From: Bdellovibrionales bacterium
GTDB taxonomy: Bacteria > Bdellovibrionota > Bdellovibrionia > Bdellovibrionales > UBA1609
Assembly: GCA_020628165.1 (NCBI GenBank)
Contig: JAHDFM010000011.1
Span: forward strand, 18,969-82,968
Length of the DNA stretch: 64,000 nucleotides
Direction: 5' to 3'
The position numbers were made by a program, and so were the translations under genes. The stretch's first letter is position 1; each line of letters starts with the position of its first letter. Below, piece after piece: positions 8,433 through 58,265 of this stretch. Below the pieces are notes generated by a model. It saw only the letters and a list, made by a program, of their open reading frames with translations, ran no database searches and was not told the DNA's origin.

Positions 8433-8433
8433 C

Positions 8434-10044
8434 ATGAGTGAGGTTTTAGAGCAGGAGACCATTGATAAAAAGATTGAGGAATTATCTGACTTTGTCATAG
8501 AAACTGCTGAAAAACCCATGAGTTCTATGGCCGTGGCTGCTTTATTAGAGAGTCGTGGCTTGCGTGACGTCGATGCTATTGAAAAGTTCAATTGTAAAAA
8601 TATTTTTGACCTTGCTGATATTGTCTATCAACAAGTTAAGCAGAGGTTGTATGATGACTTCAAAACAACGGCCAGTAAAATACAAAAAGAAAAATTATTA
8701 TTTACGCTAAAAAGGTTTTTTCTACTTTATGGCAAAGGTATTCTCTTTGCTGCACCTATGGTGGGGCAATTGTTCTCTATTCTTTACTTTAGGTACTCAC
8801 TATGGGCATGGATGGACTTTTCTGTGATGCAAGCGTCTATAGTTGCGATTGCCACATTGTTTAGTTTTATTTTCACTGGTGGGTTAGCTCAGATCATTGG
8901 TCGTGAAGGTATTTTTTATAGTGGGCAAAAAAACCCTTATTTGATGAATAAGGTGTGTTTGAAGCTTATTGCTTTTGGCGTGGCCATAGCCACTGTTTTT
9001 TCAGTGGTTGTATTTTTATCTAATATTGTATTTGGATTTTTTTCTACTCAGAATTATTTAATTTTTTTACTGTACTACAACTTATTAACATACTTGTGGC
9101 TGATATTTTCAGTTCTTTTTATGTTGGAGTTTAATTTAGCGATTTTACTGTCTACAGTCTTTGGCACTCTCATTGTTCATGCAGTTATGATTTCTAAGTG
9201 GAGTAACATATATTTGGCTCATGCTTGTGGGTTGTCGGTGGCGACTATAACTGCTTTGCTTTTTTATTATTGGGTTTACAAGAAAAAGATCAAACAAATG
9301 GATGAGAAGCTCTATCATTCAAAATTACCTAGACGAAGCGTTTTAGTCTATATTGTTGAACCCTTTATGATCTTTGGAACTTTTTATTTTTCTTTTTTAT
9401 TTGTAGATAGAATCGTTGGCTGGTCTGCTGGAACATTTAAACAACCGTTGCCAATTTGGTTTCGAACTCCCTATGAGCTAGGTATGGATTGGGCCTTAAC
9501 GGGACTTTTGATCACTTCTGCTGTTTTAACTTATACGGTTCACCAATTCAATATGCGCTTAATACCTATACAACAATCTATTAAGGCTGTTGATTATGTA
9601 ACTTTTAACAAGCACTTCAAAGGCTTTTTTTATCAACAAATGATTATGATTTGCGTGGTGAGTTTGATGAGCACTTTTTTTGTCTATTTCGGAGCACTTG
9701 CAATTAAGAATAACGTGAATTATTTAGAGGTGGAAGAATTTTTCTCAAGTGGAATCACTTATTTTACCTTTTGGTTTGCTTCTTTTGGGTACAGTTTTTT
9801 AATCATAGCTCAAATGTGTGCCTTGTTTTTCTTTTCTCTAGCAAAAACACAAATAGTTATCAAAAACATAGCCATTGCTCTCGTTGCCAACATAATGATT
9901 GGCTACATTTTAAGTCGAACGATTGCTTACGAATACAGTGTTGTGGGTTTGTTTTTTGGATCACTAATTTATTTACTATTAATGGTGAGGAGTTCGAAAA
10001 AAATGATTGATAAGTTGGATTATCAATATTATTCGGCATTTTGA
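8434..10044 (+). CDS. Polytopic membrane protein, possible PelG-like exopolysaccharide export component, with a ~95-aa cytoplasmic N-terminal extension
   Basis: 536 aa, AAGGAG RBS, at least 10 hydrophobic segments. The segment ..FSFIFTGGLAQIIGREGIFYSG.. resembles the PelG motif ..LILTGGLQLLFTRFVSDRLFE.. as I recall it. A PelF-like gene lies two ORFs downstream. Family assignment is tentative. Confidence 0.45.
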   Translation: MSEVLEQETIDKKIEELSDFVIETAEKPMSSMAVAALLESRGLRDVDAIEKFNCKNIFDLADIVYQQVKQRLYDDFKTTASKIQKEKLLFTLKRFFLLYGKGILFAAPMVGQLFSILYFRYSLWAWMDFSVMQASIVAIATLFSFIFTGGLAQIIGREGIFYSGQKNPYLMNKVCLKLIAFGVAIATVFSVVVFLSNIVFGFFSTQNYLIFLLYYNLLTYLWLIFSVLFMLEFNLAILLSTVFGTLIVHAVMISKWSNIYLAHACGLSVATITALLFYYWVYKKKIKQMDEKLYHSKLPRRSVLVYIVEPFMIFGTFYFSFLFVDRIVGWSAGTFKQPLPIWFRTPYELGMDWALTGLLITSAVLTYTVHQFNMRLIPIQQSIKAVDYVTFNKHFKGFFYQQMIMICVVSLMSTFFVYFGALAIKNNVNYLEVEEFFSSGITYFTFWFASFGYSFLIIAQMCALFFFSLAKTQIVIKNIAIALVANIMIGYILSRTIAYEYSVVGLFFGSLIYLLLMVRSSKKMIDKLDYQYYSAF

Positions 10045-10049
10045 GGGTT

Positions 10050-11663
10050 ATGGACTATAAGAAGTTTTTAGACACAAGTTTAAATGCCAATCAAATTTGG
10101 TTGGACCTCGTCGAGCACTTAGTTCAGTCTTACAAGTTGCAGTACATTAAAGTCTTTGAAGAGAGTGGCGAAGAGCTTAGTTTAGAATATTCTTATGAAA
10201 ATCCAATCAAAGAGTTTCGCGTTGATACCAAATTTCAAAAATTTCATTTAGATGACATCAATGACCTTTCGACGTTTAATAATTCTTTTACAGAGAATGA
10301 TCAGCAGTTTTTTCATGAGTCTTACAAAAAAGATGTGTTTAACAAAGCTCACAGCTTGAACAATTGTTTGATTTTAAAGGATCAATTCTATCGGGTTGTT
10401 TTTTGTTTTCACGATGGGTTTTTCTTGTGGAAACATAAGAGAGAGCTACAAAAACACGCTCAGTTCATTATTTTTTCGTACCACAATTATAAATTATTTA
10501 TGCGTAATCGTAAGGTGCTTCAAAAAGTCTATGACAATCAAGTTTTAAATAAGATTTCAAAGGCCACGATTGTTTCGAACAAACCTATATTGCAGTTTAT
10601 CCTGGATAAAGTTTGCAGTGCTCTCCATTTTGATTTTTGCTATTTAATTAATGCTGGTAACAAGACGGTCTTGTCTCAAAGTTTAAATGCTAAAGACATT
10701 GATGTCTTTAGTTTTTTAGAAATTGATAGTAACGGTGTGCAAGTGATTTCATCTGTGGATATCATTGAGCGTGGTTACGCTTCCATATTGATTTTACCTG
10801 TAGATAAATCTATGAAAGCCTACTTGGTGATGCTGGTTGAAAAAAATAAAAAAATAGTGACTGATAAACAAGTGAAAAGCTTGGAATACTATTATCAGTT
10901 ATTGATTAAGTACTTAAATAAGAAAAACGAAATAAAGAATTTTATTAAAAAGTATGAGGAGCTTCTGCTTGATTTAATCAATGTCTATGAGGCCCACTCT
11001 AATGAGCTTGTTGGTCACCACAACAGAGTGGCACTATTCACCAATTTGATAGCAAAAAAAATAAATATGAAGTTTTCTGACCGCATGATTTTAGTTAAAG
11101 CGGCCAAATTGCACGACATTGGTATGTTAAACATTCAAAAAGACAATAATATCATTGCGGATAACTTCAATCATCCTGTTGTAGGCAGTCAGGTGTTTTC
11201 TGACTTGAGTAATTATGCTGAGGTGAGTGATTTGATATTAAAGCACCATGAAAATTGTCAAGGTTATGGTTATCCACAAAGCCTTAAGCTCAAAGAAAGT
11301 GAAGTGAGTGCGCAAATTTTATCATTGGTTGAGTATTTAGTAGAGTTTGTTTTCCATAATATTAAAGGGAAACAAGTAAGTATTGCGAAAACGGTCAGTG
11401 AGTTAACAAAAAGCAATCTCTACAGTGAAAAAGTACAATCCGCAGCTGTTGATGTCCTGAAGTCCATCGAAATCCAAGGAAAGAAGCAAAGTATCTGTAA
11501 GTCTATGTTTGGGGCAAGATCACGTGTGTGCCAAGGGTGTCCTGCTTTAAATTCAAAGAAACGATGTTGGGAGTTTAATGAAGACGAACGCAATTGCATC
11601 AATCATGGCTGTAAATCATGTAAGGACTGCATTGTCTTTAAAACCTGGGGAGGGACGTCATAA
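10050..11663 (+). CDS. HD-GYP domain signalling protein with an unassigned (possibly GAF-like) N-terminal ~300 aa and an 8-Cys C-terminal tail
   Basis: HD-GYP motifs are present: HHNRVALF, AAKLHDIGM, HHENCQGYGYPQSL. C-terminal tail: CKSMFGARSRVCQGCPALNSKKRCWEFNEDERNCINHGCKSCKDCIVF. ATG 10050 was preferred over the TTG at 10041. Confidence 0.75.
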   Translation: MDYKKFLDTSLNANQIWLDLVEHLVQSYKLQYIKVFEESGEELSLEYSYENPIKEFRVDTKFQKFHLDDINDLSTFNNSFTENDQQFFHESYKKDVFNKAHSLNNCLILKDQFYRVVFCFHDGFFLWKHKRELQKHAQFIIFSYHNYKLFMRNRKVLQKVYDNQVLNKISKATIVSNKPILQFILDKVCSALHFDFCYLINAGNKTVLSQSLNAKDIDVFSFLEIDSNGVQVISSVDIIERGYASILILPVDKSMKAYLVMLVEKNKKIVTDKQVKSLEYYYQLLIKYLNKKNEIKNFIKKYEELLLDLINVYEAHSNELVGHHNRVALFTNLIAKKINMKFSDRMILVKAAKLHDIGMLNIQKDNNIIADNFNHPVVGSQVFSDLSNYAEVSDLILKHHENCQGYGYPQSLKLKESEVSAQILSLVEYLVEFVFHNIKGKQVSIAKTVSELTKSNLYSEKVQSAAVDVLKSIEIQGKKQSICKSMFGARSRVCQGCPALNSKKRCWEFNEDERNCINHGCKSCKDCIVFKTWGGTS

Positions 11664-11680
11664 GTCAAATATCAGTATTA

Positions 11681-13327
11681 ATGGCCAATGAAGGAACGTA
11701 CCCTTATATGGGCGGGGGTGTGAGCACCTGGTGCCATATTCTCTGTGAAAATCTTGAAGACATCGATTGGAAGATTTTCGCTGTTGTTGCCGACCCTTAT
11801 GTGACCGATCGCTATAAAACGGATCAACTACCACAGATCAAAGAAAAGATCATCATTCCATTGTGGGGGTTTGAAGAGACAGCTGAGTACACTGACACCA
11901 GGCCATTTCCACAGATCTATGATAATAAAGTGCGCACCACTAATGATGCTATTGAAACTGAGTTTGTTGCATTGTTTGAAAGTTTTTTGAGTGGCATGGA
12001 TGAAGATGATCACTCTATGATTGAGATGGGACACGTGATCACGTCGATTCACGACTATTTTCAGAACTACGATTACAACATCACGATGAAATCAGAACTT
12101 GCTTGGAACACCTTTAAAAATTATTTTTTAAAACGAGCCTCCGAACAAGAAATGATCAAGCTGGATCCGCCAAGTTTGTTTGACCTAACCACTTGTATGC
12201 GCTGGTTGTACAATATGTTTGTTCCGGTCGTTGCCAATGTTCCAGTCACAGATATCACTCACGCCACCATCGCATCTTCAACTGCGATGGCTTGTATCAT
12301 TTCTAAGGTGAAGTACGGAACTCCAATGGTTTTGACAGATCATGGAGTCTACGCTCGTGAAAGATACATTGCTTGTTCATCAGCTCCTTTTAGTTCATTT
12401 TGTAAACGCTTTCTAGCCCGTTTAGCCCTTTTATTTTCAAAACTCTGTTATTATTACGCCGACGTCATCACTCCCTGTGCCCACTTTAATGCTCGTTGGG
12501 AGCTACCTTTAGGTGGGTATGCCAGTCGTTTAGAAATCAATAACTTCAAAGAGTGGGAAAACACGGGAGTGGTGCCAAATCTAAAAGAGTTTCCTCACTT
12601 AGAGCCCTGTTACCGAGCTTTGGTGGACTATAATTTAATTCCTAGTTACGACAGTCAGACTGAGTTCCCATGGATTCGAACCATTTACAATGGTGTGGAC
12701 ACCGATCGCTTTAAGCCAGGGCCTAAGCCGGAGCACTTACGTGGTACACCGACGGCTGTTGCTCTTGCGCGTGTATTTCCCTTAAAAGATGTTTTGACAA
12801 TGATTCGCTCATGTAAAGTGGCAAAGCAATCGATCGATAATATAAAGTACATTGTCTACGGCTCTTTAAAAGCGGACCCTGAATACGTACAAAAATGCAA
12901 TGATCTAATTGCAGAGCTAAAACTGGAAGATAATTTTGATTTAGCAGGTTACCACTCAAAACCCAATGAAGCTTTTTGGGAGGGAGATGTGAGTGTGCTG
13001 TCGAGCATTTCAGAGGGCTTTCCTTTTACGGTGCTTGAGAGCATGGCTGCAGGTGTGCCTGTTGTAGGAACGGATGTGGGTGGCTGTAAGGAGGCCATAG
13101 GTATCGGTGATGCTGCTTGTGGAATTGTCGTGCCTCCAAGAGATCCTGAAAGTTTTGGCAACGCTGTAGTTAAACTATTAACTGACTCAGACCTTAGGCT
13201 GTATTACTCTAAAAAAGGTCGAGAAAGAGTTCTTAAACTTTTTCAAACAGACATTTCTGTTAAAGCTTATAGAAACGTTTATCAGTACCTCTATGAACGC
13301 TTTTCAAAGTCTAGAAATAATAAATAA
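11681..13327 (+). CDS. pelF: PelF-like glycosyltransferase (DUF3492-type N-terminus + GT4 C-terminal domain)
   Basis: The N-terminus MANEGTYPYMGGGVSTWCHIL matches the PelF-family start (EG[ST]YPYV.GGVS.W.H.L, from memory). The C-terminal GT4 region is SISEGFPFTVLESMAAGVPVVGTDVGGCKE. Confidence 0.7.
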   Translation: MANEGTYPYMGGGVSTWCHILCENLEDIDWKIFAVVADPYVTDRYKTDQLPQIKEKIIIPLWGFEETAEYTDTRPFPQIYDNKVRTTNDAIETEFVALFESFLSGMDEDDHSMIEMGHVITSIHDYFQNYDYNITMKSELAWNTFKNYFLKRASEQEMIKLDPPSLFDLTTCMRWLYNMFVPVVANVPVTDITHATIASSTAMACIISKVKYGTPMVLTDHGVYARERYIACSSAPFSSFCKRFLARLALLFSKLCYYYADVITPCAHFNARWELPLGGYASRLEINNFKEWENTGVVPNLKEFPHLEPCYRALVDYNLIPSYDSQTEFPWIRTIYNGVDTDRFKPGPKPEHLRGTPTAVALARVFPLKDVLTMIRSCKVAKQSIDNIKYIVYGSLKADPEYVQKCNDLIAELKLEDNFDLAGYHSKPNEAFWEGDVSVLSSISEGFPFTVLESMAAGVPVVGTDVGGCKEAIGIGDAACGIVVPPRDPESFGNAVVKLLTDSDLRLYYSKKGRERVLKLFQTDISVKAYRNVYQYLYERFSKSRNNK

Positions 13328-13386
13328 ATAATATTTATTTGACACTGTGGTGCCGCTTTTTCATACTAAATGAACGGAGACCAAGT

Positions 13387-14805
13387 ATGGATTACAGAAA
13401 ACATATATGTTTGTTGCACAGCTATGGAGTGGACGGTTCGGGGAGCTCTGTTTACACAATTGATTTAGCCAACGAGTTGGTAAAGTTTGGTTATCGTGTC
13501 AGTGTCATTTGTCACGAAACAAGGCTGAGTCACCTAAAGAACAACAACAAACAATTAAATCTTAAGAATGTTCATATTCCCTACTGCGAGACGAGAAAAA
13601 GTGAATTTGTGACTGTCTTTAGTTTATTCACTAAAAACACATTTGTTGCCTATGATCGTCCAGAACTGTCGAACACAAAACCAATCAATGAGGCCTCTCA
13701 CGATGAGATCATGCAACACACGGATGAGATTTATAAATTTTTAAATTATTTAAATTGCAAAAATCCAATAGAGCAAATTTTAGTGAATCACTTAAGTGTT
13801 TTGAACTTAGTTGCCAGTCAATTTGGCAAAAAAAACAATGTGCCATTCAAAACAATTGTGCATGGAACTTTTCTTGAATATGCCATCAATCGCAATTTGT
13901 ATTTTAAAAAGTTAGTGACTTATAGTTTAGAGCAGACCAGTGCTATTTTTGTTTTGAATGAATCCGTGAAAAGTCGCTTCTTAAAAACGTTTGATCGCTT
14001 CACAGAAAAAGTTAAAATTGTACCACCAGGTCTGAATCAAACTTATTTTGACACCAACCAAGTCAGTCCACAGGTCCTAGCCAGTGAACATAAAGTGATA
14101 TCCTACGTCGGACGTATCTCTTTAGATAAAGGCCTACATTGTTTATTGGTTATTTTACCTTTGTTGTCTCTTAAGCATAAGTTCACACTTAAAATAGCAG
14201 GGGACGGCCCTGATTTACCGTTTTTAAAAGATACAATGAACTTGCTGTCTCAGGGCCGCTTTAGAGAGTATTATGAAAAGTGTGAAGAATACATCGGCGA
14301 GACGAGAGATAAAGACATTGCGCGACTTTTGCTCAATCCGTTAAAAAATTATTTAGCAAAGTATGAACTGAATAAACTAAACACCATTGACTTTGAGCTC
14401 AATGTTGATTGGTTAGGACATTTGTCTAAACAGGGTTTGGAAAAACTATATAAAAAGTCCGAGTACAATGTTTTAACTTCGCTTGTTCCTGAAGCCCATC
14501 CGTTGGTTATTTGTGAAGCTTTAGCATGTGGGACAATGACCATTGCTAAAAATTTTTCTGGAATCACAGAGCTTTACTCAGACCTAGATGACTACTTATC
14601 CGGCTCTGAAGATAAAGATTATCAAATAGAAGATGATCATACCACTTTCATTGAAGAACTTTTTAAAGTTTGTGATCGTTACTTGCAAAAAAACACACTG
14701 AAAGAGTTGAGTCCACAATTGAAAGAGTTTGCGAAAAAGTCATACTCTTGGTCGTCGCTTGCTAGGAAGATACTGTATTCAGAAAATGAAACAATGTTTG
14801 TTTAA
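13387..14805 (+). CDS. Glycosyltransferase, GT4-like, paralog of the ORF at 4592
   Basis: ATG 13387 is preceded by ACGGAGA. The N-terminus HICLLHSYGVDGSGSSVYT parallels ILLLHGYGLDRSGSNVF of the 4592 ORF. The C-terminal region is ..VPEAHPLVICEALACGTMTIAKNFSG.. Confidence 0.75.
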   Translation: MDYRKHICLLHSYGVDGSGSSVYTIDLANELVKFGYRVSVICHETRLSHLKNNNKQLNLKNVHIPYCETRKSEFVTVFSLFTKNTFVAYDRPELSNTKPINEASHDEIMQHTDEIYKFLNYLNCKNPIEQILVNHLSVLNLVASQFGKKNNVPFKTIVHGTFLEYAINRNLYFKKLVTYSLEQTSAIFVLNESVKSRFLKTFDRFTEKVKIVPPGLNQTYFDTNQVSPQVLASEHKVISYVGRISLDKGLHCLLVILPLLSLKHKFTLKIAGDGPDLPFLKDTMNLLSQGRFREYYEKCEEYIGETRDKDIARLLLNPLKNYLAKYELNKLNTIDFELNVDWLGHLSKQGLEKLYKKSEYNVLTSLVPEAHPLVICEALACGTMTIAKNFSGITELYSDLDDYLSGSEDKDYQIEDDHTTFIEELFKVCDRYLQKNTLKELSPQLKEFAKKSYSWSSLARKILYSENETMFV

Positions 14806-14825
14806 GTATTTTACAGGGAGGTAAA

Positions 14826-15611
14826 ATGTCAAAATTTATGGGAATAATACTTGCGGCTGGAGCGGGAACGAGAATGCAGTCAACTCTTCCTAAAGTGCTT
14901 CATGAAGTCAATGGCAAAAGCATGGTGCAAAGTTCTATCGATGCTCTTAAGAAAGCTGGAGCTGAAGAAATTGTTGTTGTTGTCGGTTACAAAAAAGAAA
15001 TGGTCATGGAAAAACTGGGGGATCAGGTCAAGTACGCTGTTCAAGAACAGCAGCTAGGAACGGGGCATGCTGTAAAAGCAGCTGCTGAACATATTAAAAA
15101 CTACGATGGTAAAGTGGTCGTTGTTTATGGTGATAACCCACTTCTTAAAGTTGAAACCATCCAAAAATTAGTGACCTCTGTGGACGAGGAGCATAGCTGT
15201 AGCTTATTGACCATATCATTATTAAACCCTTCGCAGGCAGGGCGTATCGTTCGAGATAAGTCTGGGCGATTTTTAAAAGTCATAGAAGAGCAAGATTGCA
15301 GTAAGGAACAAAAAAAGATTTCCTACATAAACTGTGGCTCTTACTGTTTTAAAAGTAATTTGTTGTTAACGGCACTTGATCAGTTAAAATCAAACAATAG
15401 TCAAGATGAGTATTACCTGACTGATGTGCCAGGTTATTTTGTAGAGTCGGGAGAGAAAGTTCAGTTAGTGGAAGCAACGGATGTTTTTGAAATACTCGGC
15501 ATAAATGACAAGAAGCATTTAGAGTTTGCAGAAACTGCTCAAACTATTGAGTATGCCGAGGCTTTCTATGAAATAATTGATGCCGCCAGCAAACTGAAAA
15601 AGGCCGAGTGA
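14826..15611 (+). CDS. Sugar-1-phosphate nucleotidyltransferase resembling the N-terminal uridyltransferase half of GlmU, without the acetyltransferase half
   Basis: GGGAGG RBS. ILAAGAGTRMQSTLPKVLHEVNGKSMV matches the GlmU N-terminal signature. At only 261 aa there is no room for the left-handed beta-helix acetyltransferase domain. Confidence 0.8.
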   Translation: MSKFMGIILAAGAGTRMQSTLPKVLHEVNGKSMVQSSIDALKKAGAEEIVVVVGYKKEMVMEKLGDQVKYAVQEQQLGTGHAVKAAAEHIKNYDGKVVVVYGDNPLLKVETIQKLVTSVDEEHSCSLLTISLLNPSQAGRIVRDKSGRFLKVIEEQDCSKEQKKISYINCGSYCFKSNLLLTALDQLKSNNSQDEYYLTDVPGYFVESGEKVQLVEATDVFEILGINDKKHLEFAETAQTIEYAEAFYEIIDAASKLKKAE

Positions 15612-15615
15612 ATTT

Positions 15616-16383
15616 ATGTTAGAACGAATTGTATTAGAAGAAGAGGAAGTGTCTAAAAAAATACTTTTGGTTGATAATAAAGACGATGAAATTCGCATTT
15701 TAAGGCGTAGACTTTGCCAGTTTGGGTTTGACGTTGTCATAGCTGAAGGGCCAATGCGGGCTATCGATATTTTGTCAAAAGACAAAGATATAGAGTTGAT
15801 TTTTTTAGATTTTAACACATTAAATTTAACGGGCTTTCAGATAATCAATAAAATCGCTAAAATGAACCCTGCTCAAAAAGCTAAGGTGATTGTTCAGTGC
15901 AATGGTTGTTCAATCACTCAATTGCGCAATATCATTAAGTGCGGCGCATCCGATTGTTTAATAAAACCCGTGGATCAATTAGTGCTTCAGCACAAGGTCT
16001 CATCTATTTTAGGGTTGGATGTTGAAAAGTGGATGGACTACACCATCAATGAGTTTGATACAGACAAGGTTGCAGGAGTTTTTTTATTGTCTGACAATAT
16101 TGAATTGATGTCATTGAGTGAGCTAAACTTAAAATTTAAATGTCGACATGACATTGAGGTGGGCTCAAAGATTATTCTACGAGTACCGATTCTTGATGAA
16201 ATTGGTGTAGGGGAGTGTTTAGTTGAAATTATTTCCGTTGATTGTGATGGACACACAAACTTCTGCACAGCCAATATCATAGGTTTAGAAGAAGCGAAAA
16301 GAACTCAATTAAGAAAGTACATTCTTGAGTGTTATCGAAAAAAAAGAAAAGTAAAAAGCCAAGGACGACTCCCAAATTGCTAA
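15616..16383 (+). CDS. Response-regulator receiver domain protein with a C-terminal PilZ-like (degenerate) beta-barrel region
   Basis: Receiver pattern KILLVDN..IELIFLDFNTLNLTGFQ..CLIKPV. The C-terminal ~100 aa (..ELMSLSELNLKFKC..VGSKIILRV..CLVEIISV..ANIIGLEEAKRTQLRKYI) follow a PilZ-like strand pattern, but no clean RxxxR or DxSxxG motifs are present. Confidence 0.6.
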   Translation: MLERIVLEEEEVSKKILLVDNKDDEIRILRRRLCQFGFDVVIAEGPMRAIDILSKDKDIELIFLDFNTLNLTGFQIINKIAKMNPAQKAKVIVQCNGCSITQLRNIIKCGASDCLIKPVDQLVLQHKVSSILGLDVEKWMDYTINEFDTDKVAGVFLLSDNIELMSLSELNLKFKCRHDIEVGSKIILRVPILDEIGVGECLVEIISVDCDGHTNFCTANIIGLEEAKRTQLRKYILECYRKKRKVKSQGRLPNC

Positions 16384-16484
16384 CCGCAGTTTGGGCTTAT
16401 CCCACGATTAAAAAAGTATCACAGATCACTTTGGGCGCATTTTAGTCTTCTTGAGTTTATCACCCTCATTTTGAGAAAAGTACT

Positions 16485-16510
16485 GTCATCCTGAGGGAGA
16501 GCCGAAGGAT
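16485..16510 (+). repeat. Copy (diverged) of the dispersed GTCAYCC..GAAGGA repeat
   Basis: GTCATCCTGAGGGAGAGCCGAAGGAT lies in the convergent gap between the receiver gene and the TPR/barrel gene. An upstream half-unit TATCACCCTCATTTTGAG is also present. Confidence 0.55.
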
Positions 16511-16571
16511 ACAAGCAAAGACCATATTGTTAGTATGACGGTGTTATTTATTCTAAACAAAAGAATAATTT

Positions 16572-17999
16572 CTACAAAAATTTGTACGTCAGGTTAATAC
16601 TGAACAAGTTGTAGTTATAAACCTCAGATCCCGAGGATACATAGCGCATTTGCAGTTTAGCAGCCCTATTAATGACATAACTAAAGTAAACATCTGGCTG
16701 AAAGTTGACAGAGTCATCCTCTCTGATGGCCAGCTTAAATTGAGTGTCTAAAATGTATTTGTCAGTCTTAAACCACTCAACCCCAGCTCCAAGAGTATAC
16801 AAGGGGCGAGTATCTTCTGTGAAGTAAGGGGAGGCGCCGTCATAAATGGTTTTAAATTTCTGCTGAATTAAGTTAAAAGTGCTGTAAATTCGTTTGGGTT
16901 GATCAAAAGCATAGTACTTCCAAAACAGACTGTAATAAAAGTTAGTATTTTCGTCAGAAATCAACTGCTGAGTGATTTCACCACTGATGATATGGTCTTT
17001 AAATTGCTCAGAATAAACGCTAGCACTCATGTTGAGTGCCGAAATTTCATTGAGGTGTGCCTCTGTGGTGGGGTGATATGAGTCGTTCATTACTTTAAGA
17101 CTAACATAGTTCTTTGTAAACAGAGATGTATTAAAGACATAGCCATAATGAGGGATAGAGTTTGGTAGGTTCACTCCAATGTGTGCATGTGATATTGACT
17201 GAGATGTGTGTGACCAGCTAAGGGTTGATTTGAGCAGGTGATTGCTAAAGTCACGAACTTTGTCTTCTTGCAAGGTCGTTTGATGTTCCAGTTTGTACTT
17301 AAGCTTTGAGTTCAAATAATTGCTGTAATCGTTAGTTATCTGATTTTGTGTAAGGTCTGTGCTATCAACATAATATTTGTACTCATTGAATGTTTGCCCA
17401 GACTTTTCGTAACTAAGTAGGTCTTTGTATTTGAGAGCATTGCTATGAGACGGCTCAAGAGTGAGTATTTTATCATAGTTAGCGAGGCTTCTCTGCCAGC
17501 AGGTGTTCCAGTGACAATGCTGAGCTTGTAGGTAAAGCACTTCTGTGTCGTTGGGCTCTAAAGCAAGATAATCAGTGGCCGACTCTAAAAACGCTGGAAT
17601 GTCTTTCACAGAAATGTAAGCAAGCCCAATATTTTTTAAAGCTGTGTTGTTTTCACTATTGAGTTTAAGGACTTTCTTATAGTAAACAATCGATTTTTTA
17701 AACTGTTGATCCCACTGCAGTCCTTGCGCTAGGTCAAAAAGTAATTTTTCATTGCTTGGGTCCTTTTTAGCAAGAACTTCCATGTATTGCAGTCTTTTTT
17801 TGGTCAGTGAAACCCAACCAGACCACGTGATAATTTTTTTAAGAAGGTCTATATTTCTACGATCTTTTTTATACTGTTTTTCTGCGAGTTGAATAGCTTC
17901 TTTCGTTTTCCCTTGAGCCATCAGCGACTCTAGCGATAGGCCACTAGAGTAGGAGCTGACTGTATAAAAGGTTAAAAGTAAAATTAAAGTTGCTCGCAT
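16572..17999 (-). CDS. Secreted TPR-repeat + beta-barrel protein (small PelB/PgaA/BcsC-type polysaccharide export scaffold/porin candidate)
   Basis: Signal peptide MRATLILLLTFYTVSSYS. The N-terminal ~200 aa are TPR-like (..YYKKVLKLNSENNTALKNIGLAY.. LALEPNDTEVLY.. ILTLEPSHSNAL). The C-terminal ~270 aa have alternating beta-strand character and end ..NLTYKFL. Confidence 0.6.
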   Translation of the reverse strand: MRATLILLLTFYTVSSYSSGLSLESLMAQGKTKEAIQLAEKQYKKDRRNIDLLKKIITWSGWVSLTKKRLQYMEVLAKKDPSNEKLLFDLAQGLQWDQQFKKSIVYYKKVLKLNSENNTALKNIGLAYISVKDIPAFLESATDYLALEPNDTEVLYLQAQHCHWNTCWQRSLANYDKILTLEPSHSNALKYKDLLSYEKSGQTFNEYKYYVDSTDLTQNQITNDYSNYLNSKLKYKLEHQTTLQEDKVRDFSNHLLKSTLSWSHTSQSISHAHIGVNLPNSIPHYGYVFNTSLFTKNYVSLKVMNDSYHPTTEAHLNEISALNMSASVYSEQFKDHIISGEITQQLISDENTNFYYSLFWKYYAFDQPKRIYSTFNLIQQKFKTIYDGASPYFTEDTRPLYTLGAGVEWFKTDKYILDTQFKLAIREDDSVNFQPDVYFSYVINRAAKLQMRYVSSGSEVYNYNLFSINLTYKFL

Positions 18000-18088
18000 A
18001 TAATAAATAAATAATAATTATTTAATAAAGAATGATCGATCTAATTCGTTATTCTTCTTGAAAACTAGATGTAGGTGCAGCTCACAGT

Positions 18089-19198
18089 ATGGCGGGATTA
18101 AATACCGATTTTAATTTAACAAGCAAGATTGATACGAACTTACCATTTTCAGAAAGTTTGTTTTTTCCTTTTTTTAGTTTGATATTTCTATGTTTAGTTA
18201 AATCGTTAGTGAATATAAAATTATTTCCAAATGATCATGTTATAAATTCATTCATGATTTCACTGGTACTCATTTGTTTGGTCGAACACAATGTAGGGCG
18301 TTTGTTTGCCTATTATGAAGAGAACGAAAATATTTTTACGACGACAAGATTGAAATCTTACTTAGTCTCTACGGGGTTAATTCTTGCTTTCATACTTTCC
18401 ATCATAAGCTTTGTAAATGATAGTTTGGCCTACTTACTTCCACTAGATATCTATTTGTCATTCGTAGTTCTGCGATTAATGAAAAAAAAATTATCATTGA
18501 AAGTGGGGGTGCTTTTACTCACAGTCGTTTCTGCAGTTTTGTTTTTTAGTGGTAGTAGTCTTTATTTGTATCATTTGTTTTTAAAAATTATATTAACCGT
18601 TTGTTTTTTTAGATTATTTAAATTCACTTGGTATACATATTATAAGAAATATTTTATTAGAACTCATAAACTGTATTACAGCCTGTTTGGCTTTTGCATT
18701 TATTTCCCTTTAGCATTTTATTTTTATTTTAATCGTGAACAAGTAGTGCACTTTAGCATTATGTCCTTGGTTTTCCTTATGCTAGTGGGAGGGTCTTTTG
18801 TTGATTATCAATTCACCAACTCCTTACTGCGTTTGAAAAAGTTAGTTAGCTCCGAGATGTCATATGGTTCTTTTATAAATAATTCGTTGGATTATGCCGG
18901 TCGAGTGCAATTGATTTTTTCTGTGTACATGGTGCTAGTGGTTCTTTTTGCCAGCTATAGTGCTGTTCTAGGAATGTCTTTTGTTCCAATTGTGCTGCTT
19001 TCATTGGCAGTGTTTATGTATAAGTACAATTATTTCTTTCGTTTGAGTCAGTTGTTCCTAGTAAGTCATTTAATACTGCTCACTTTGGTTTGTGTGGTTG
19101 ATATGAGCTTATTCTTTATACTATATTTGTTGTTAGCATATGTTTTTTTTGTAGAGGGCTTTCGCAAGTTCCACCTTTATTTGCGTGGAATATTTTAA
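18089..19198 (+). CDS. Polytopic membrane protein, unknown function (candidate Wzy-like polymerase or other EPS membrane component)
   Basis: 369 aa, almost entirely hydrophobic segments, embedded in the EPS locus. No motif recognised. Confidence 0.5.
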   Translation: MAGLNTDFNLTSKIDTNLPFSESLFFPFFSLIFLCLVKSLVNIKLFPNDHVINSFMISLVLICLVEHNVGRLFAYYEENENIFTTTRLKSYLVSTGLILAFILSIISFVNDSLAYLLPLDIYLSFVVLRLMKKKLSLKVGVLLLTVVSAVLFFSGSSLYLYHLFLKIILTVCFFRLFKFTWYTYYKKYFIRTHKLYYSLFGFCIYFPLAFYFYFNREQVVHFSIMSLVFLMLVGGSFVDYQFTNSLLRLKKLVSSEMSYGSFINNSLDYAGRVQLIFSVYMVLVVLFASYSAVLGMSFVPIVLLSLAVFMYKYNYFFRLSQLFLVSHLILLTLVCVVDMSLFFILYLLLAYVFFVEGFRKFHLYLRGIF

Positions 19199-19221
19199 GA
19201 GAAAACAAAGGAGTTTAATTG

Positions 19222-20181
19222 ATGAAAAAATTAGTTGTCGTGACTGGAGGAGCTGGCTTTATTGGTTCTCATACTGTGGACTACCTACTTAAGAACAAGT
19301 ACCAAGTGATCGTTCTCGATGACTTCAGCACAGGGCGCAGGGAGAACTTAGAACATCACTCAGGCAACCCAGACCTAGAAGTGTACGAGGTCAACATCGT
19401 CACGCGCTTGTGGTCAAAACTTTCTGCCATTTTAAACGATCGCCCTGTTCATAGTATCATTCATTTAGCTGCTCAAACAGCTGTGGTGCAATCAGTGGCT
19501 GATCCTATCCAAGATGTAAAGGTGAACTATTCAACGACAATCGAAGTGCTTGAGTTTGCTAAGATCAATAATATTAAAAGTGTGTTTTTTGCATCGTCAG
19601 CGGCTGTGTATGGAGACTGTTCTGATGAACTCATATCAGAAAAAGCTCAATGCCAGCCCTTGTCGCCCTACGGAATCAATAAGCTCGGCTCTGAGATGTA
19701 TATGGAGTACTATAAAAAAGTTCACAACATCAACGCCACGTCATTTCGTTTTTTTAATGTGTTTGGACCAAGACAAGACCCTATGAGCTCTTACTCGGGT
19801 GTGATTTCTATTTTCTTTGATCGCGCTCTTAAAAATAAAGACTTGGTTATCTTTGGAGATGGACAACAAACGAGAGATTTTGTTTATGTCGAAGATGTCG
19901 TTCAAAATATTTTATTTTTTCTCAATGAAAACATGAGTTCGGTGGGGGCATACAATGTGGGGACATCCACTAAGACGACCATCACTGAGCTAGCAGAATT
20001 CATCATAGAGATGACGGGCTCAAAGAGCAAAATTATCCACAAAGAAAGTCGTCCGGGAGAAATCATTCACTCGCAGGCCTCCATTGAAAAACTTAAGAAA
20101 ATAAATAAGACATTCCCGAACTACGCCCTTGAGAACGGTTTGCAAATCACAACCGATTGGTTTCGCGAGGCCACCATTTGA
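19222..20181 (+). CDS. NAD-dependent sugar-nucleotide epimerase (extended SDR; GalE/WbpP/PelX-like UDP-hexose or UDP-HexNAc 4-epimerase)
   Basis: AAGGAG RBS. Rossmann motif VVTGGAGFIGSH and catalytic YxxxK (SPYGINKLGSE). About 320 aa, typical for the family. Confidence 0.85.
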   Translation: MKKLVVVTGGAGFIGSHTVDYLLKNKYQVIVLDDFSTGRRENLEHHSGNPDLEVYEVNIVTRLWSKLSAILNDRPVHSIIHLAAQTAVVQSVADPIQDVKVNYSTTIEVLEFAKINNIKSVFFASSAAVYGDCSDELISEKAQCQPLSPYGINKLGSEMYMEYYKKVHNINATSFRFFNVFGPRQDPMSSYSGVISIFFDRALKNKDLVIFGDGQQTRDFVYVEDVVQNILFFLNENMSSVGAYNVGTSTKTTITELAEFIIEMTGSKSKIIHKESRPGEIIHSQASIEKLKKINKTFPNYALENGLQITTDWFREATI

Positions 20182-21533
20182 GCGAACGCATTTCACTGAT
20201 TTTAGAAGGAGCTCAGAAGCCAAGTGTGGGTGGTGTTTTTCGTCATATAGAGTCACTTGTGAAAAGCCTTAAATACAAAAACTTTGAATTCATTCTCCTT
20301 TCAACTAAAGACCAAAGTGACAGTGAATTGCAATTTTTAAAGCAGTTCAATGTGACGGAACGACATGTGAGTCTCTTTCATCCTCACGCTATCAAAAGGT
20401 ATTGGCCATTCAAAGATAAAAAGTTAAAACAAGTTTACAGCTTTATAGAGTCTTTGATCGCTGGAGACACTCAACAAAAATTACAGAAAAAGTTTTTACA
20501 ATTAAAAAAAATGAAGTTTTCAAACAGCAGGGCAAAAAAAATAAGTCAGTGCGATATTAAAGAAATCACACATATCTGCGAAACACACTTTCAACAATCA
20601 GAAGTGAATGATGTGCGCGCCTTAGTGAGGAGCTTTATTTTGCCATTAAGAAACACAATAATGAATCATACGGAACTCAATGTTTCGCATGTATTTTCAG
20701 TGGGGTTGCCATTGTTTTTTGCGTTAAAAAATTCACGAGACACCAAGAAAATCATTGTCGATGTGCACGGCGATTTTCTAGCTGAGCTTGAATTTCAATT
20801 CCCGCACTATAAAAGCGTACAACAAGCTTTCAAAAATCTAGTGAATTTCAACTCTCACCAAATAGAAAATATGGTTTACCGAGGGGTGCGCAGTCAATTA
20901 CAAGCCAGCCAAACAGAAACCAACATCGTCCGTATTAATAATTTTAGCGCAAACAAGTTCAAGTCTCCAAAAGGGTCGGACACACTAAGGATTTCTTATG
21001 TTGGCCGTTTGAGCCGCGAAAAAGATGTTCTCACGGTGATTGAACAGTTCAAAGATTTTAACCAACAATACACAGAGCGAGCTGAGTTAAATATCATTGC
21101 CCCCAAAGGTTACGAAAAAAAATACTACGATTTATTAAAAGTAAAAATAAAAAAGTACAGGTTAACAAATGTAAATTTCCATTTCGATCTTAACCAAAAA
21201 GACCTCTACGCGTTCACAGATGTGCTCTTGTTAATGAGCGATTACGAGACTCAGCCATTGGTGTTAATCGAGGCTGCTCAATTAGAAATCCCTGTGATCT
21301 GCAACGATCTTCCATCATTACGACAAATGGTCACTTCAAGGAAGTACCAAAAAGATCTATTCATAAATAAAAAAGAAAAAAACGAAGCCGTAGAGGCACT
21401 AAACTTAATGAGCAACATCACCAAAAGAAAACAATACGGCCAACTCTTAAAAAGTATACTAGATCAAAAACACACAGAAAAAGCCTTCAGAAGTAGCTAC
21501 GACAATCTTTATAGAGATGTCTCAATTATTTAA
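20178..21533 (+). CDS. Glycosyltransferase, GT4-like
   Basis: C-terminal GT4 region ..SDYETQPLVLIEAAQLEIPVICNDLPSL.. The probable TTG start at 20178 overlaps the epimerase stop (ATTTGA). The ORF track starts it at 20157. Confidence 0.7.
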   Translation: MSERISLILEGAQKPSVGGVFRHIESLVKSLKYKNFEFILLSTKDQSDSELQFLKQFNVTERHVSLFHPHAIKRYWPFKDKKLKQVYSFIESLIAGDTQQKLQKKFLQLKKMKFSNSRAKKISQCDIKEITHICETHFQQSEVNDVRALVRSFILPLRNTIMNHTELNVSHVFSVGLPLFFALKNSRDTKKIIVDVHGDFLAELEFQFPHYKSVQQAFKNLVNFNSHQIENMVYRGVRSQLQASQTETNIVRINNFSANKFKSPKGSDTLRISYVGRLSREKDVLTVIEQFKDFNQQYTERAELNIIAPKGYEKKYYDLLKVKIKKYRLTNVNFHFDLNQKDLYAFTDVLLLMSDYETQPLVLIEAAQLEIPVICNDLPSLRQMVTSRKYQKDLFINKKEKNEAVEALNLMSNITKRKQYGQLLKSILDQKHTEKAFRSSYDNLYRDVSII

Positions 21534-21660
21534 AGTGTTAATTGAACTCTAATTGTACTTACTTTGGTGAACAACTACGTCGAAGCTCAAAGATGTACAA
21601 ACACAAAGTGAAAGCCCCATGCAGCGCCGGAGTTTCATTTGCAAAAAAAGAAAAATGCGA

Positions 21661-21776
21661 AAAGACGTCAAAGACATTTTTTCCGCACGGAGTTCCGCGG
21701 GTGCGCTGCTCGGCCAAAGGGCGAGCGGTGCTGCCCGAGGCTGTTTGAGTACGGAAAGAATGTCTTTGACGTCTTT
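21661..21776. repeat. Hairpin element, copy 1: 25-bp basal stem enclosing a 66-nt GC-rich conserved core
   Basis: 21661-21685 (AAAGACGTCAAAGACATTTTTTCCG) pairs with 21752-21776 (CGGAAAGAATGTCTTTGACGTCTTT), giving 25 bp with one G-T. The core is the reverse complement of the core at 57689-57752. It lies between convergent genes (GT4 end 21533, lpdA end 21836). Confidence 0.75.
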
Positions 21777-21835
21777 GGGTCTCAAGCAAAATCGTGCAAA
21801 TGAATCTCAGGCGACCATGAAAGAACGAAAAAAGC

Positions 21836-23242
21836 CTACATCTGACGAGCAAGCTTGTCGACATTAAGAGCCGCTTCACGAACCACTTCACTCAAAGTCG
21901 GATGCGAGTGGAAGCTGCGAGCAAGGTCTTCAGCACTGCCACCAAACTCCATACAAACGATGATTTCAGAAAGCAGCTCAGAAGCACGAGGCCCAATAAT
22001 ATGGCCCCCTAAAATTTGATCGGTCTCTTTGTGAGCAAGAATTTTAACTTGTCCATCGGTTTGGCCAAGAGCTTTGGCACGGCCATTGGCAGAAAAAGGA
22101 AAAGTTCCTGATTTGTAAGGAATGTTTTGTGCTTTGAGCTCTTCTTCGGTGTAACCAACGCTAGCCACTTCAGGATCTGTATAAATAACAGATGGCACAG
22201 TGAAGTAATTAACGTGTCCCGATTGGCCGGCAACGATTTCAGCAACGGCCACAGCTTCTTCCTCCGCTTTGTGAGCAAGCATCGGACCAGGAATTAAATC
22301 GCCAACAGCGTAGACATTGCTGAACTTAGTTTGAAAATGCTCATTCACTTGCACAAATCCACGCTTGTCTTTTTCAATGCCAAGCTCATCGAGGCCCAGC
22401 TTATCAGAATAAGGCACACGCCCTGCAGCTACTAAACAAATGTCGCCTTTGATCTTTTCAGTTTCTCCAGTTTTCATCACTTCATAAGTGAGCTCCACAG
22501 ATGACTTTTTGGCGTCAGCTTGGGTGACTTTTGCGCCAGTGATAAAGTTCATGCCCTGTTTCTTGAGGATTTGCATAAGGCGTTTGCTTATGCCTTTGTC
22601 CATAGGGCCACAAATTTTGTCTGCGTATTCGATTACAGTGACTTCACTGCCTAAACGCATCCATACAGAGCCCATTTCTAAGCCAATGGCACCAGCGCCA
22701 ATAACGAGCATTTTTTTAGGAACTTTCTCAAGGCTCAAGGCTTCCGTAGAAGAAATGATCGTTGTGCCGTTATACTCAAGACCGGGTAGGGTGTTGGGAG
22801 CACTTCCTGTTGCAAGCATAATATTTTTTGCTTTCAAAACTGTTTCTTTGTCACCACCAGACACTTTGACTTCGTTGGCTGAAACGAGTTGTCCCCAGCC
22901 ACTGAACTTTTCAACGTTATTTTTCTTCATAAGGTAATCCACGCCGCCAGTGAGTTCACCTACGATTTTGTCTTTTCTAGCTAGTAAATTCTTAAGGTTG
23001 AGCTTAACGCCACTGAGATCAACTCCGTGCTCACTCAACGAGTGATTGGCTTGCAAGAAATGCTCAGATGATTCCAGCATAGCCTTTGAAGGAATACAGC
23101 CAACGTTCAAGCACGTGCCGCCCAGTGTTTTTTCTTTTTCAACAATAGCAGTTTTAAGTCCAAGTTGGCTTGCGCGAATGGCGCCAACATAGCCGGCAGG
23201 TCCCGATCCAATGATCACTAAATCAAATTCTGTGTTCGACAT
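21836..23242 (-). CDS. lpdA: Dihydrolipoyl dehydrogenase (E3)
   Basis: GSGPAGYVGAIRASQLG..LGGTCLNVGCIPSKA redox-active disulfide motif. 468 aa, immediately downstream of sucB. Confidence 0.95.
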   Translation of the reverse strand: MSNTEFDLVIIGSGPAGYVGAIRASQLGLKTAIVEKEKTLGGTCLNVGCIPSKAMLESSEHFLQANHSLSEHGVDLSGVKLNLKNLLARKDKIVGELTGGVDYLMKKNNVEKFSGWGQLVSANEVKVSGGDKETVLKAKNIMLATGSAPNTLPGLEYNGTTIISSTEALSLEKVPKKMLVIGAGAIGLEMGSVWMRLGSEVTVIEYADKICGPMDKGISKRLMQILKKQGMNFITGAKVTQADAKKSSVELTYEVMKTGETEKIKGDICLVAAGRVPYSDKLGLDELGIEKDKRGFVQVNEHFQTKFSNVYAVGDLIPGPMLAHKAEEEAVAVAEIVAGQSGHVNYFTVPSVIYTDPEVASVGYTEEELKAQNIPYKSGTFPFSANGRAKALGQTDGQVKILAHKETDQILGGHIIGPRASELLSEIIVCMEFGGSAEDLARSFHSHPTLSEVVREAALNVDKLARQM

Positions 23243-46671: not shown

Positions 46672-47181
46672 ATGATGATCATATTTCAAATTATAATGAG
46701 TGCGACGGTGAGCTTTTCCGAAAGCGTACCTGTTGAGTTCAATCACACGGTAGAAACATGTTTGTCAGCACAAAGCTTATGGAGTCATTTTGACTTAGCT
46801 TTGACTAACTCCAAGGGATCGCGCCTTTGGCCGACGAAATCTTCTAAAGTTCAAGGGAGCGGTGTTTCTGAAGAAGCGATTATCAATGTGACTTATAAGG
46901 CTGGCCTTTTTAGCCCTACTTACAGCTACAGAGTTTCAAATATATCGCCACTAGAAACATTCACTTACTCCGCCGTGCCGGAAGATCACCCATTTGAGGG
47001 CGGTGCACAGATTGATATAATTGATCACGGGGAGTACCGAGAGCTAGTTTGGGATGGCCTTTATCAAACTCCTGCCAATGCACGTCGACATCGTCGCTTT
47101 TTTAAAAAATATTCAGCTAAGTTTTTCAAACAATTAAATGATAATATTGGGCAGCTAGAAACCGTAGAGTGTTCTTTTTAA
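46672..47181 (+). CDS. Hypothetical protein
   Basis: 169-aa ORF with compact spacing after lgt. No motif recognised. Confidence 0.4.
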   Translation: MMIIFQIIMSATVSFSESVPVEFNHTVETCLSAQSLWSHFDLALTNSKGSRLWPTKSSKVQGSGVSEEAIINVTYKAGLFSPTYSYRVSNISPLETFTYSAVPEDHPFEGGAQIDIIDHGEYRELVWDGLYQTPANARRHRRFFKKYSAKFFKQLNDNIGQLETVECSF

Positions 47182-47386
47182 AAGTTTTTAGATAACTACC
47201 CCAAGTGGTCATTGTTGACTGCATCTTTTTGAGACACCTATTGAATATTATTTGTTGCTTCATATAATTATACTGTAACGATACACTTTATTTTTTTTCG
47301 ACATTCATTTTAAAACAACGACGTTTATTTTTATGAAAACATTTAGAAAGACTTAATTTTTTATCAACATAGCCGATAGTCTTAGT

Positions 47387-51418: not shown

Positions 51419-51444
51419 AGCCGCTGTTATTCAGAGTCAGCAAC

Positions 51445-51506
51445 GTCACCCAGAGCACAATCCTTCATCCTAAGCACAGTATGTCATCCTGAGCGAAGCG
51501 AAGGAC
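51445..51506 (+). repeat. Dispersed GTCAYCC..GCGAAGCGAAGGAC repeat, three tandem units
   Basis: GTCACCCAGAGCACAATCC-TTCATCCTAAGCACAGTAT-GTCATCCTGAGCGAAGCGAAGGAC lies in the convergent gap after the 1343-aa ORF. Confidence 0.7.
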
Positions 51507-51576
51507 ACAACCCATCAATAACAATCACTGACTACAAAAAAATATTTTTATAAAAATAACATTTAATAAGTATCAA

Positions 51577-52473: not shown

Positions 52474-52517
52474 TGTGTGTTGGATAGAGCAGTTCTTATA
52501 TTTTGTCTAGGTAGGTT

Positions 52518-52543
52518 GCGCTAGGTCCTTCGCTCAAGTTGAC
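52518..52543 (-). repeat. Dispersed repeat, single unit in inverted orientation
   Basis: The reverse complement reads GTCAACTTGAGCGAAGGACCTAGCGC and shares the GAAGGACCTA(A)GCGC tail with the 39.7-kb copy. Confidence 0.55.
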
Positions 52544-52578
52544 AAATATTTACTTAAGGCAGTTTTTCACTGCAATAT

Positions 52579-53304: not shown

Positions 53305-53576
53305 CTTTTGACATGAGATGCAAATAGAAAGCCACAACTTCTTATCCAGTAAGCATTTATTTTTTTTATGAATTAGACTGTGAAATTTAGAACGTTCTTT
53401 TGTAAAAGACAAAAACTGTCACTTTTGGAGAGTCAGCTGACGCTTTTTGCATGAGTGATAGATGAGTCTTCTTGTTGTCTATTTATAATTTTTTATTGTT
53501 AAGAAAACTTGGGGTATCTTTAATTAGGTGGTTACTTAAAGGTGAAATTTATTTAGAGCAGCTACTATTGAGCACT

Positions 53577-57663: not shown

Positions 57664-57777
57664 AAAGTCATCGAATACCCCTTCCCCATACTCAAACAAC
57701 CTCGGGCAGCACCGCTCGCCGATAGCGAGCAGCGCACCCGCGGAACTGCTTGTGGGGAAGGGGTGTTCGATGACTTT
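57664..57777. repeat. Hairpin element, copy 2 (inverted relative to copy 1): 25-bp basal stem + 64-nt conserved core
   Basis: 57664-57688 (AAAGTCATCGAATACCCCTTCCCCA) pairs with 57753-57777 (TGGGGAAGGGGTGTTCGATGACTTT), giving 25 bp with one G-T. The core 57689-57752 matches the reverse complement of 21686-21751 in two blocks (31/32 and 22/22). Confidence 0.75.
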
Positions 57778-58265
57778 TTGTATTCATAAATTTTATGCAG
57801 ACAAAAACACCGGGCAACGCTCTTTGAATGTTAGCGTGGCTGGCGCGTGGTGAGAGGTCTGTCGTGTTCGGGTATTTCATTTTAACTTTTACAATTCAAC
57901 ATTTTTATTATTGAGATTGATTTTATTAAATGATGAATTTTAGTTTTGGTTTAACAATGCATTTTTAAATTTTATTTTGAGTATAACTAAAAATTTACTG
58001 AGTGCGGTTGCAGTCACGATGCTTTATTCATTTATGTTTTTTTAACGACAGTTTTCATCATTAAGTAAGGATATACATAAAATTTGTTTTTCATTAGAAA
58101 TCAATCATATGGTCAATTTAGATAGTGACGCAATTGGTTAATTCGCTATCAGAGGCAATATATCTGCTATTGAAAAACTTGCCCTTTGGTCTTATTCGAA
58201 GTGTAGTTATATTAAATGTATATAGGAATAACATAAAACCTGTGACATGGAGAGGGGGCTTGATT

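Follow-up and report, generated by a model that had tools for sequence, protein, structure and literature searches.

We analysed a 64,000-nt stretch of a Bdellovibrionales genome (contig JAHDFM010000011.1; hereafter the window) that carries two copies of a long intergenic hairpin with a GC-rich tip. As a first-pass annotation of the sequence had placed them, copy 1 lies between convergent genes, one encoding a glycosyltransferase (20157-21533, +; assigned with Pfam) and the other lpdA (21836-23242, -), which closes a sucAB-lpdA-type operon, and copy 2 lies upstream of nrdA (-), in the divergent region that separates it from an unannotated gene (58125-59663, +). The window is otherwise ordinary chromosome, with exopolysaccharide glycosyltransferases, mscS, folE2, fur, a uvrA paralogue, hemB, maf, lgt and nrdAB. 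Both hairpins belong to an apparently undescribed non-coding palindromic repeat family, so far seen only in a few Bdellovibrionota lineages.

Each copy consists of a 25-bp stem with a single non-Watson-Crick position, enclosing a GC-rich core (Table 1); in copy 2, this one position reads A·C on the minus strand and G·T on the plus strand. RNA folding of both strands of both copies gave -62 to -83 kcal/mol, compared to -32 to -42 kcal/mol for shuffled sequences (z -8.6 to -11.5; 0/200 dinucleotide shuffles as good), and DNA energy parameters returned the same picture. The core is an imperfect palindrome of ~46 nt whose GC content (0.64-0.67) stands out from a background of 0.38, and its two conserved blocks occur once per copy and nowhere else in the window (0/100 shuffles matched). 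A covariance model of the core (CM R1) likewise recovered the two copies and no others: they score 67 and 63 bits, and no further hit in the window exceeds 13 bits. The functional strand, which had been considered unassignable, can in fact be called for the core: its wobbles and a bulged T favour the plus strand for copy 1 and the minus strand for copy 2. This sense strand also folds 9-13 kcal/mol better as RNA, and the minus strand of copy 2 outperforms its plus strand with both parameter sets (-83.3 versus -74.2 kcal/mol for RNA, -44.6 versus -38.8 kcal/mol for DNA).

With the cores aligned, comparison of the two sets of arms revealed 14 unchanged pairs, nine pairs changed on both sides and still paired, one single-sided change and one A·C. 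The first-pass annotation had described every arm difference as compensated, which holds for nine of ten, the tenth being the G·T/A·C position. Because the arms are homologous (15/25 positions identical, permutation p ~1e-4), this compensation is real and does not arise from juxtaposing two unrelated hairpins. Copy 1 had also been delimited as a hairpin of ~115 nt; the hairpin is genuine, but the element extends further, into an outer 19-nt inverted repeat that pairs in a 236-nt fold and shares its centre with the hairpin to within 1 nt (21719 versus 21718.5). Around copy 2 we observed a weak outer inverted repeat (AGAGC..GGTGT, 57620-57632/57808-57824) that is roughly concentric (centre 57722 versus 57720.5), and L031 shows a similar imperfect outer layer, which suggests that multi-layer palindromes are general in the family.

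Table 1. Coordinates of the two hairpin copies in the window and of a promoter-like match beside copy 2 (CM R1, covariance model of the core).
Feature	Coordinates	Strand	Remarks
Copy 1 5' arm (AAAGACGTCAAAGACATTTTTTCCG)	21661..21685	+	24 Watson-Crick pairs and 1 G·T with 21752-21776
Copy 1 5-nt linker CACGG, arm to core	21686..21690	+	unlike copy 2 CAAGC
Copy 1 conserved GC-rich core	21691..21751	sense +	CM R1 63 bits, E 4e-19
Copy 1 core parts	helix 21695-21712/21722-21740; bulged T 21732; loop 21713-21721		AGTTC lead; TGTTTGAGTA tail
Copy 1 3' arm	21752..21776	+	complement of 21661-21685
Copy 1 outer inverted-repeat arm (CGCCGGAGTTTCATTTGCA)	21625..21643	+	complementary at 17/19 to 21795-21813
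Copy 1 outer inverted-repeat partner (TGCAAATGAATCTCAGGCG)	21795..21813	+	partner of 21625-21643
Copy 2 5' arm (sense strand)	57753..57777	-	24 Watson-Crick pairs with 57664-57688
Copy 2 5-nt linker CAAGC	57748..57752	-	
Copy 2 conserved core	57689..57747	sense -	CM R1 67 bits, E 1.5e-20
Copy 2 3' arm (sense strand)	57664..57688	-	
Promoter-like match TTGCCC-16-TAAAAT	57790..57817	-	consensus scan, 9/12 positions; weak evidence

For a wider comparison, the sequence available was the 64-kb window and, from other genomes, snippets of 8 kb. An exact-pattern scan of GTDB species representatives, which used the inner helix only, returned 29 loci; five of these, from three Bdellovibrionales metagenome-assembled genomes, contain the whole core in AT-rich context, and the other 24 are chance matches in GC-rich genomes. 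Two further contigs with the hairpin came from a metagenome scan. The covariance-model search that the first-pass annotation had proposed identified 16 strong copies, as well as several degenerate ones, across 46 kb of related loci, and the covariation was upheld. All copies examined are intergenic. They are particularly dense on the 2.17-Mb chromosome OZ244239.1 (at least 17 copies in the 24 kb sampled), where they form units of ~172 nt composed of a conserved 5' flank (CCCCGTTGTTCACAG...TTCAAGGAGA), a ~25-nt arm, AGCG, the core, the complementary arm and GAGTCATTTGCC. These units occur singly, as inverted pairs and in head-to-tail arrays (L028 3190-3930), and some are preceded by 23-nt tandem repeats.

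A nested arrangement was found once, on metagenome contig L030, in which an inner unit with perfect 46-bp arms sits at the exact centre (GCTCAT...ATGAGC) of a second core. This second core is diverged, points the opposite way and is enclosed by arms of its own (73 bp, 97% complementarity). Orientation relative to genes is inconsistent, with ~7/12 loci co-directional with an upstream gene. In the closest available relatives (NrdA 84-86% and LpdA 78-85% identical), ~100 kb of sequence contained no core, and this sequence included the regions downstream of lpdA and upstream of nrdA. Such dispersed, tandem and nested arrangement, together with inconsistent gene orientation and absence at orthologous sites, shows at the level of sequence patterns that the family multiplies and rearranges as DNA.

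Several other features accompany the hairpins. In OZ244239.1, the 5' flank of units abuts tandem repeats of 22-23 nt (GGGAACAACGGGAGCGGAGGAGG, as many as 8.6 copies; L004 1750-2067 and 2638-2694); the window copies are without such arrays. Another repeated module, GGCAAAGAACACTTTATACTCCCCCCTTCCCCCC, occurs together with hairpin units at L028 1895-1930, 3640-3670 and 3945-3980, and in one case, at L028 3612-3694, it interrupts a core; the region is mosaic in its modules. Small open reading frames (ORFs) lie between hairpin units of OZ244239.1 in a cassette-like manner, at L008 507-920 (137 aa), L008 1892-2641 (249 aa) and L028 2214-2993 (259 aa); the 137- and 259-aa ORFs appear to start with signal peptides, and a Pfam scan of the 249- and 259-aa ORFs returned no match. 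In one relative, the region downstream of lpdA contains a different long, AT-rich imperfect hairpin, AATTTAAAATAGTGTGGCGTCC...GGACGACACGGTTATTTTAAATT (L035 7437-7490), unrelated to the core.

The apical module of the family (~60 nt) is GC-rich and folds into an imperfect hairpin of ~17 bp. One T is bulged, the two or three G·T wobbles all fall on one strand, and conserved motifs that are single-stranded, AGTTC... and ...TGTYTGAG, lie on either side. Among 16 distinct core sequences, 98.1% of cells were paired and five pairs had changed on both sides, for example from CGGG/CCCG in the window to TTGG/CCAA elsewhere; 0/500 shuffles matched the observed percentage paired or covariation score, and slid controls paired at 19-49%. 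Wobble pairs were pairable on one strand only, as seen for positions 13-44 (UG in 13 sequences, CG in two, UA in one), 16-40 (GC in nine, GU in four, AU in three) and 18-38 (UG in 14, UA in two). Loop length varied from 3 to 9 nt across copies, which speaks for a folded hairpin rather than a duplex-DNA dimer site of fixed spacing.

Sequence conservation is concentrated in this apex. Within one genome the core is 85-100% identical, whereas arms and outer flanks are 50-80% identical; between copies overall, core identity is 0.7-1.0 and arm identity 0.3-0.7. The first-pass annotation had allowed for many copies of a known REP/MITE family with conserved arms; the family is indeed multi-copy, but its arms diverge and co-vary. 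The contrast is sharpest in a pair of units 1 kb apart (L004), whose cores are identical at 59/59 positions, loop included, and whose arms are 65-69% identical, with compensated substitutions and indels. Uniform divergence cannot yield this pattern, so the core must be either strongly sequence-constrained or homogenised between copies.

The arms are AT-rich and 25-46 bp long, with weaker outer layers, and they drift in sequence while keeping their complementarity, in agreement with the original proposal that the fold is maintained. When arms from 16 copies were indexed outward from the core, 94.5% of cells were paired, double-sided changes were found at 25/25 positions, and the covariation score was 1.08, compared to 0.27±0.03 (maximum 0.36) for shuffles; slid controls paired at 38-51%. 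Non-Watson-Crick arm pairs on the core sense strand comprised 18 G·U and five A·C, or about 12 versus 4-5 as independent events given the relatedness of copies, a bias that is suggestive only. Sibling copies were found with inverted loops, TTT versus AAA (L028_3408/3808) and TGAA versus TTCA (L008_1557/80), and a C-G pair in one tandem unit corresponds to T-A in the unit next to it, a compensated change. Together with the compensated indels, these loop flips and tandem-unit differences point to arm-to-arm templating at the DNA level as the apparent source of complementarity. Selection on the hairpin is also possible, given that homologous arms persist across organisms and that G·U outnumbers A·C. 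We found no indication that arms act as guides: their best matches elsewhere in the 64-kb window reach 17-18/25 positions, the same as shuffled arms.

We interpret these elements, with moderate confidence, as a new palindromic repeat family that combines a strand-specific recognition apex with templated arms. The apex would be the functional part, a sequence-specific site whose trans-acting partner would recognise one folded strand, either as single-stranded DNA (ssDNA) or as RNA. We favour a recognition module because the core is nearly invariant within genomes, exists in genome-specific covarying variants, and has a fixed bulge and wobbles and conserved single-stranded flanks. Arm complementarity would be kept mainly by arm-to-arm templating, through intra-strand template switching or conversion in the folded palindrome; the stable GC core could nucleate the switching, and selection on the hairpin may add to it.

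Several observations weigh against this interpretation. No trans-acting partner was identified, and we found neither a target-site duplication (TSD) nor defined termini: arm boundaries gave no TSD, and the CCATG repeat at the boundary of the copy 1 outer repeat is itself palindromic and expected by chance in ~5% of cases. Because there is no insertion footprint, mobility is deduced from distribution, arrays and nesting. An exact empty site could not be aligned, the nearest relatives being ~85% identical in housekeeping proteins, and the restricted sampling described above counts on the same side, as does the derivation of the G·U bias from related copies. Finally, homologous compensated arms across organisms could equally reflect long-term selection on an RNA fold.

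This last point leads to a possible but less probable explanation, which overlaps the one we prefer: that the element is primarily a structured RNA, either a cis-acting untranslated-region element or a multi-copy small RNA, with growth in copy number secondary. Its apical domain would bind a protein, and the long duplex would be selected as an RNase III substrate, mRNA stabiliser or terminator. The confinement of core wobbles to one strand in a G-C/G·U/A-U series, the preference for G·U over A·C in the arms, the better folding of the sense strand as RNA and the very strong arm covariation across organisms are all consistent with such a role. Context offers further hints, as copy 1 lies within the 3' region of a co-oriented gene and a promoter-like match in sense orientation lies just upstream of copy 2, such that the sense transcript would begin a few nucleotides ahead of the hairpin; around copy 2, a consensus scan returned 7 promoter-like matches against 2.8 expected. 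However, a role primarily as RNA is harder to reconcile with the inconsistent orientation to neighbouring genes, the copy nested in another copy's loop, the head-to-tail arrays, the loop inversions between siblings and the absence of the element at orthologous sites. Loops are also not conserved stable tetraloops, and Rfam gave no match.

The two genomic settings bear on the same question. On the minus strand of copy 1, the hairpin is followed by a T-rich tract (TTTTCGCATTTTTCTTTTTTTG), because of which copy 1 may double as the lpdA terminator or as an RNA-stabilising hairpin; the other orientations have no U tract. The first-pass annotation had judged the element not to be a simple terminator, a view that our results support. 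An intrinsic-terminator scan, which handles only loops of 3-8 nt, found none at the elements. For copy 2, alignment with relatives showed that the nrdA-proximal ~500 nt are conserved, and the hairpin lies just distal to them, in window-specific sequence. This position counts against a primarily RNA-based role; copy 2 lies beyond the conserved nrdA promoter region and is probably a passenger that is tolerated there. That region (57249-57620, - strand) contains a promoter-like sequence, TTGACACCGTAACTTTGACG (TTGACA...CAAAAT), along with an 87-aa ORF. The N-terminus of this ORF shows 41% identity to an 89-aa ORF upstream of nrdA in L038 and L039; the 87-aa ORF matched no Pfam family.

A second alternative, which we consider unlikely and which again overlaps the preferred interpretation, is an ssDNA element moved by an HUH/Y1 transposase acting in trans, as in REP-RAYT systems or IS200/IS605-derived PATEs. 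The bulged core hairpin and its single-stranded flanks would then be the binding and cleavage site, and arrays would result from rolling-circle-like copying. The imperfect GC-rich core hairpin with its conserved extrahelical T and single-stranded flanks, the strand-specific folding (DNA parameters included), the lack of both a TSD and terminal inverted repeats common to copies, and the head-to-tail arrays all fit this idea, as does a Y1_Tnp (PF01797) gene in a close relative (L039 13668-14267). That relative, however, has no core copy in 31 kb, and its Y1 gene is flanked by unrelated 25-bp repeats. The family also lacks a GTAG-type REP motif, and tblastn detected no Y1 gene in the 64-kb window or at any fetched family locus. 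More broadly, the first-pass annotation had proposed a check for an associated enzyme such as a TnpA-REP/Y1 transposase or integron integrase. At the loci scanned with tblastn and Pfam, no transposase, integrase or reverse transcriptase was encoded by the scanned window ORFs or by the neighbours of family copies whose ORFs were scanned. The Y1_Tnp gene of the relative (199 aa, HUH motif HYH) lies between nrdB and lgt, with 25-bp inverted repeats AAGGTACGGACACACTTCTGGGAC on its flanks (L039 13524-14338; JGI Ga0114957_1000531); the corresponding nrdB-lgt position in the window holds ~7 kb of other genes (46672-53412).

A bolder and quite improbable proposal is a self-templating hairpin element, in which the conserved asymmetric apex would recruit an enzyme and new copies would insert at the tips of existing hairpins or at palindrome centres, leaving the stem as a free duplex that diversifies rapidly and is perfectly paired. 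Insertion at hairpin tips is raised because the nested copy on L030 sits exactly at the apex of the other core and because palindrome layers are concentric. In a still more speculative version, the 25-bp duplexes might be processed into copy-specific small RNAs. We give even less credence to the view that only the ~60-nt core is the unit and that new arms are generated locus by locus through fold-back (snap-back) priming at the core hairpin, by which adjacent DNA would be copied in inverted orientation, with compensation as a trivial by-product. Variable arm lengths (22-27, 35, 41, 46 and 73 bp, the longest being perfect or nearly so), concentric outer layers and the identical cores with different arms of the L004 pair would be expected from such priming. 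But arms are homologous between copies 1 and 2, as noted above; OZ244239 arms are 50-70% identical, near-fixed at 25-27 nt and set between conserved outer flanks; and arms from L030 and L031 resemble OZ244239 arms, as judged by eye. An integron attC-type site, solo or clustered without an integrase, is essentially refuted despite the long imperfect hairpin, extrahelical base, strand asymmetry and same-orientation arrays interleaved with small ORFs (L008, L028), as neither window copy has complementary R'' (RYYYAAC) and R' (GTTRRRY) boxes at its base on either strand, the 172-nt arrays have no cassette content, and no integrase is encoded in the window.

Four further candidates were rejected. 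A small ORF is suggested by an RBS-like AAGGAG and an ATG in some OZ244239 copies only, and its reading frame is not conserved, since the 3-9-nt loops and a 1-nt core indel shift the frame and early stops occur in several copies. A tRNA-like or T-loop element is contradicted by ARAGORN, which finds nothing in the window, tRNAs included, and by a GTTCGG motif without the invariant A58 position. A K-turn in the GA/GUCUGA internal loop would need a G that is not conserved in copy 2, L001, L030 and L031. A conserved lpdA or nrdA regulatory element does not fit relatives that are without the element at both sites. Elsewhere, positions 644-2637 of the window encode a partner-switching pair: a SpoIIE-type phosphatase that has an HATPase_c_2 domain and weakly matches a receiver domain, and after it a STAS-domain protein. 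Both lie upstream of a large cluster of the exopolysaccharide type, which includes GT4 and DUF3492 glycosyltransferases (2640-21533).

Database searches were consistent with a family not previously described. As the first-pass annotation had anticipated, Rfam gave no match at gathering threshold over the whole window, and at E<=10 copy 1 and the L028 array returned only noise (at best MIR1031 at 13 bits versus a gathering threshold of 100, GibS at 21 versus 115). Searches with blastn against phage and plasmid collections gave no match, a viral contig scan gave only chance matches in GC-rich contigs, and literature searches on Bdellovibrio repeats and hairpins and on the core sequence turned up nothing relevant.

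REP, ERIC and Correia palindromes normally conserve the sequence of their stems. The hairpin family described here inverts that pattern: its asymmetric GC-rich tip is near-invariant, and its 25-46-bp stem turns over completely while remaining ~95% paired, compensated indels included. It thus constitutes a clean natural system in which to separate selection on a fold from arm-to-arm templating as the source of covariation, a distinction that matters to every covariation-based RNA discovery pipeline. The family also flags a presumed protein partner, and possibly a mechanism of hairpin-tip insertion, in a poorly studied phylum of predatory bacteria.

In a final comparison with known systems, we considered the two likenesses proposed in the first-pass annotation, REP and attC. 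REP-like is the better fit, the family being multi-copy, dispersed, tandem, nested and not orthologous between relatives. The family shares with attC a conservation of structure over sequence, a strand-selective hairpin, extrahelical bases and arrays, but the R''/L''/L'/R' organisation of attC sites is absent, and conservation is apical here and basal in attC. PATEs of the IS200/IS605 group carry two different subterminal hairpins, unlike the single central hairpin of each unit here. Quasi-palindrome template switching in E. coli and the flip/flop hairpin inversion of parvovirus terminal repeats are processes rather than families; they keep arms complementary and invert the loop without selection on sequence. 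That similar processes act here is suggested by sequence patterns, namely compensated substitutions, compensated indels and the TTT/AAA and TGAA/TTCA flips.

Correia (nemis) elements of Neisseria and other MITEs are also small non-coding repeats, with ~26-bp inverted ends and long transcript hairpins. Correia hairpins are RNase III targets, a plausible model for an effect on RNA. MITE terminal repeats are conserved and flanked by TSDs (TA for Correia), whereas the arms described here differ by at least 40% and no TSD was found. Enterobacterial ERIC (IRU) sequences, imperfect palindromes of comparable size (~127 bp) with a conserved central inverted repeat, are likewise intergenic and occur in either orientation; they can be co-transcribed and fold in mRNA. 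ERICs are conserved over their whole length and belong to an unrelated taxon, in contrast to the hyper-diverged compensated arms, tandem arrays and nesting seen here. The closest likeness is to REP, BIME and REPIN elements, which are also extragenic, GC-rich imperfect palindromes, multi-copy, found singly, clustered or arrayed, represented by a genome-specific variant and presumably recognised as a folded single strand. In REPINs, the REP sequences that form the stem are conserved and the spacer varies, and in this family conservation lies in the apex and variation in the long stem; neither window core has an adjacent GT[AG]G, the conserved 5' flank being AGTTC; and the available sequence that was scanned (window and family loci) yielded no cognate Y1 gene of the RAYT kind by tblastn or Pfam. 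On our best reading, although the family fails the defining sequence features of REP/BIME/REPIN, ERIC and Correia elements, it resembles them in kind.

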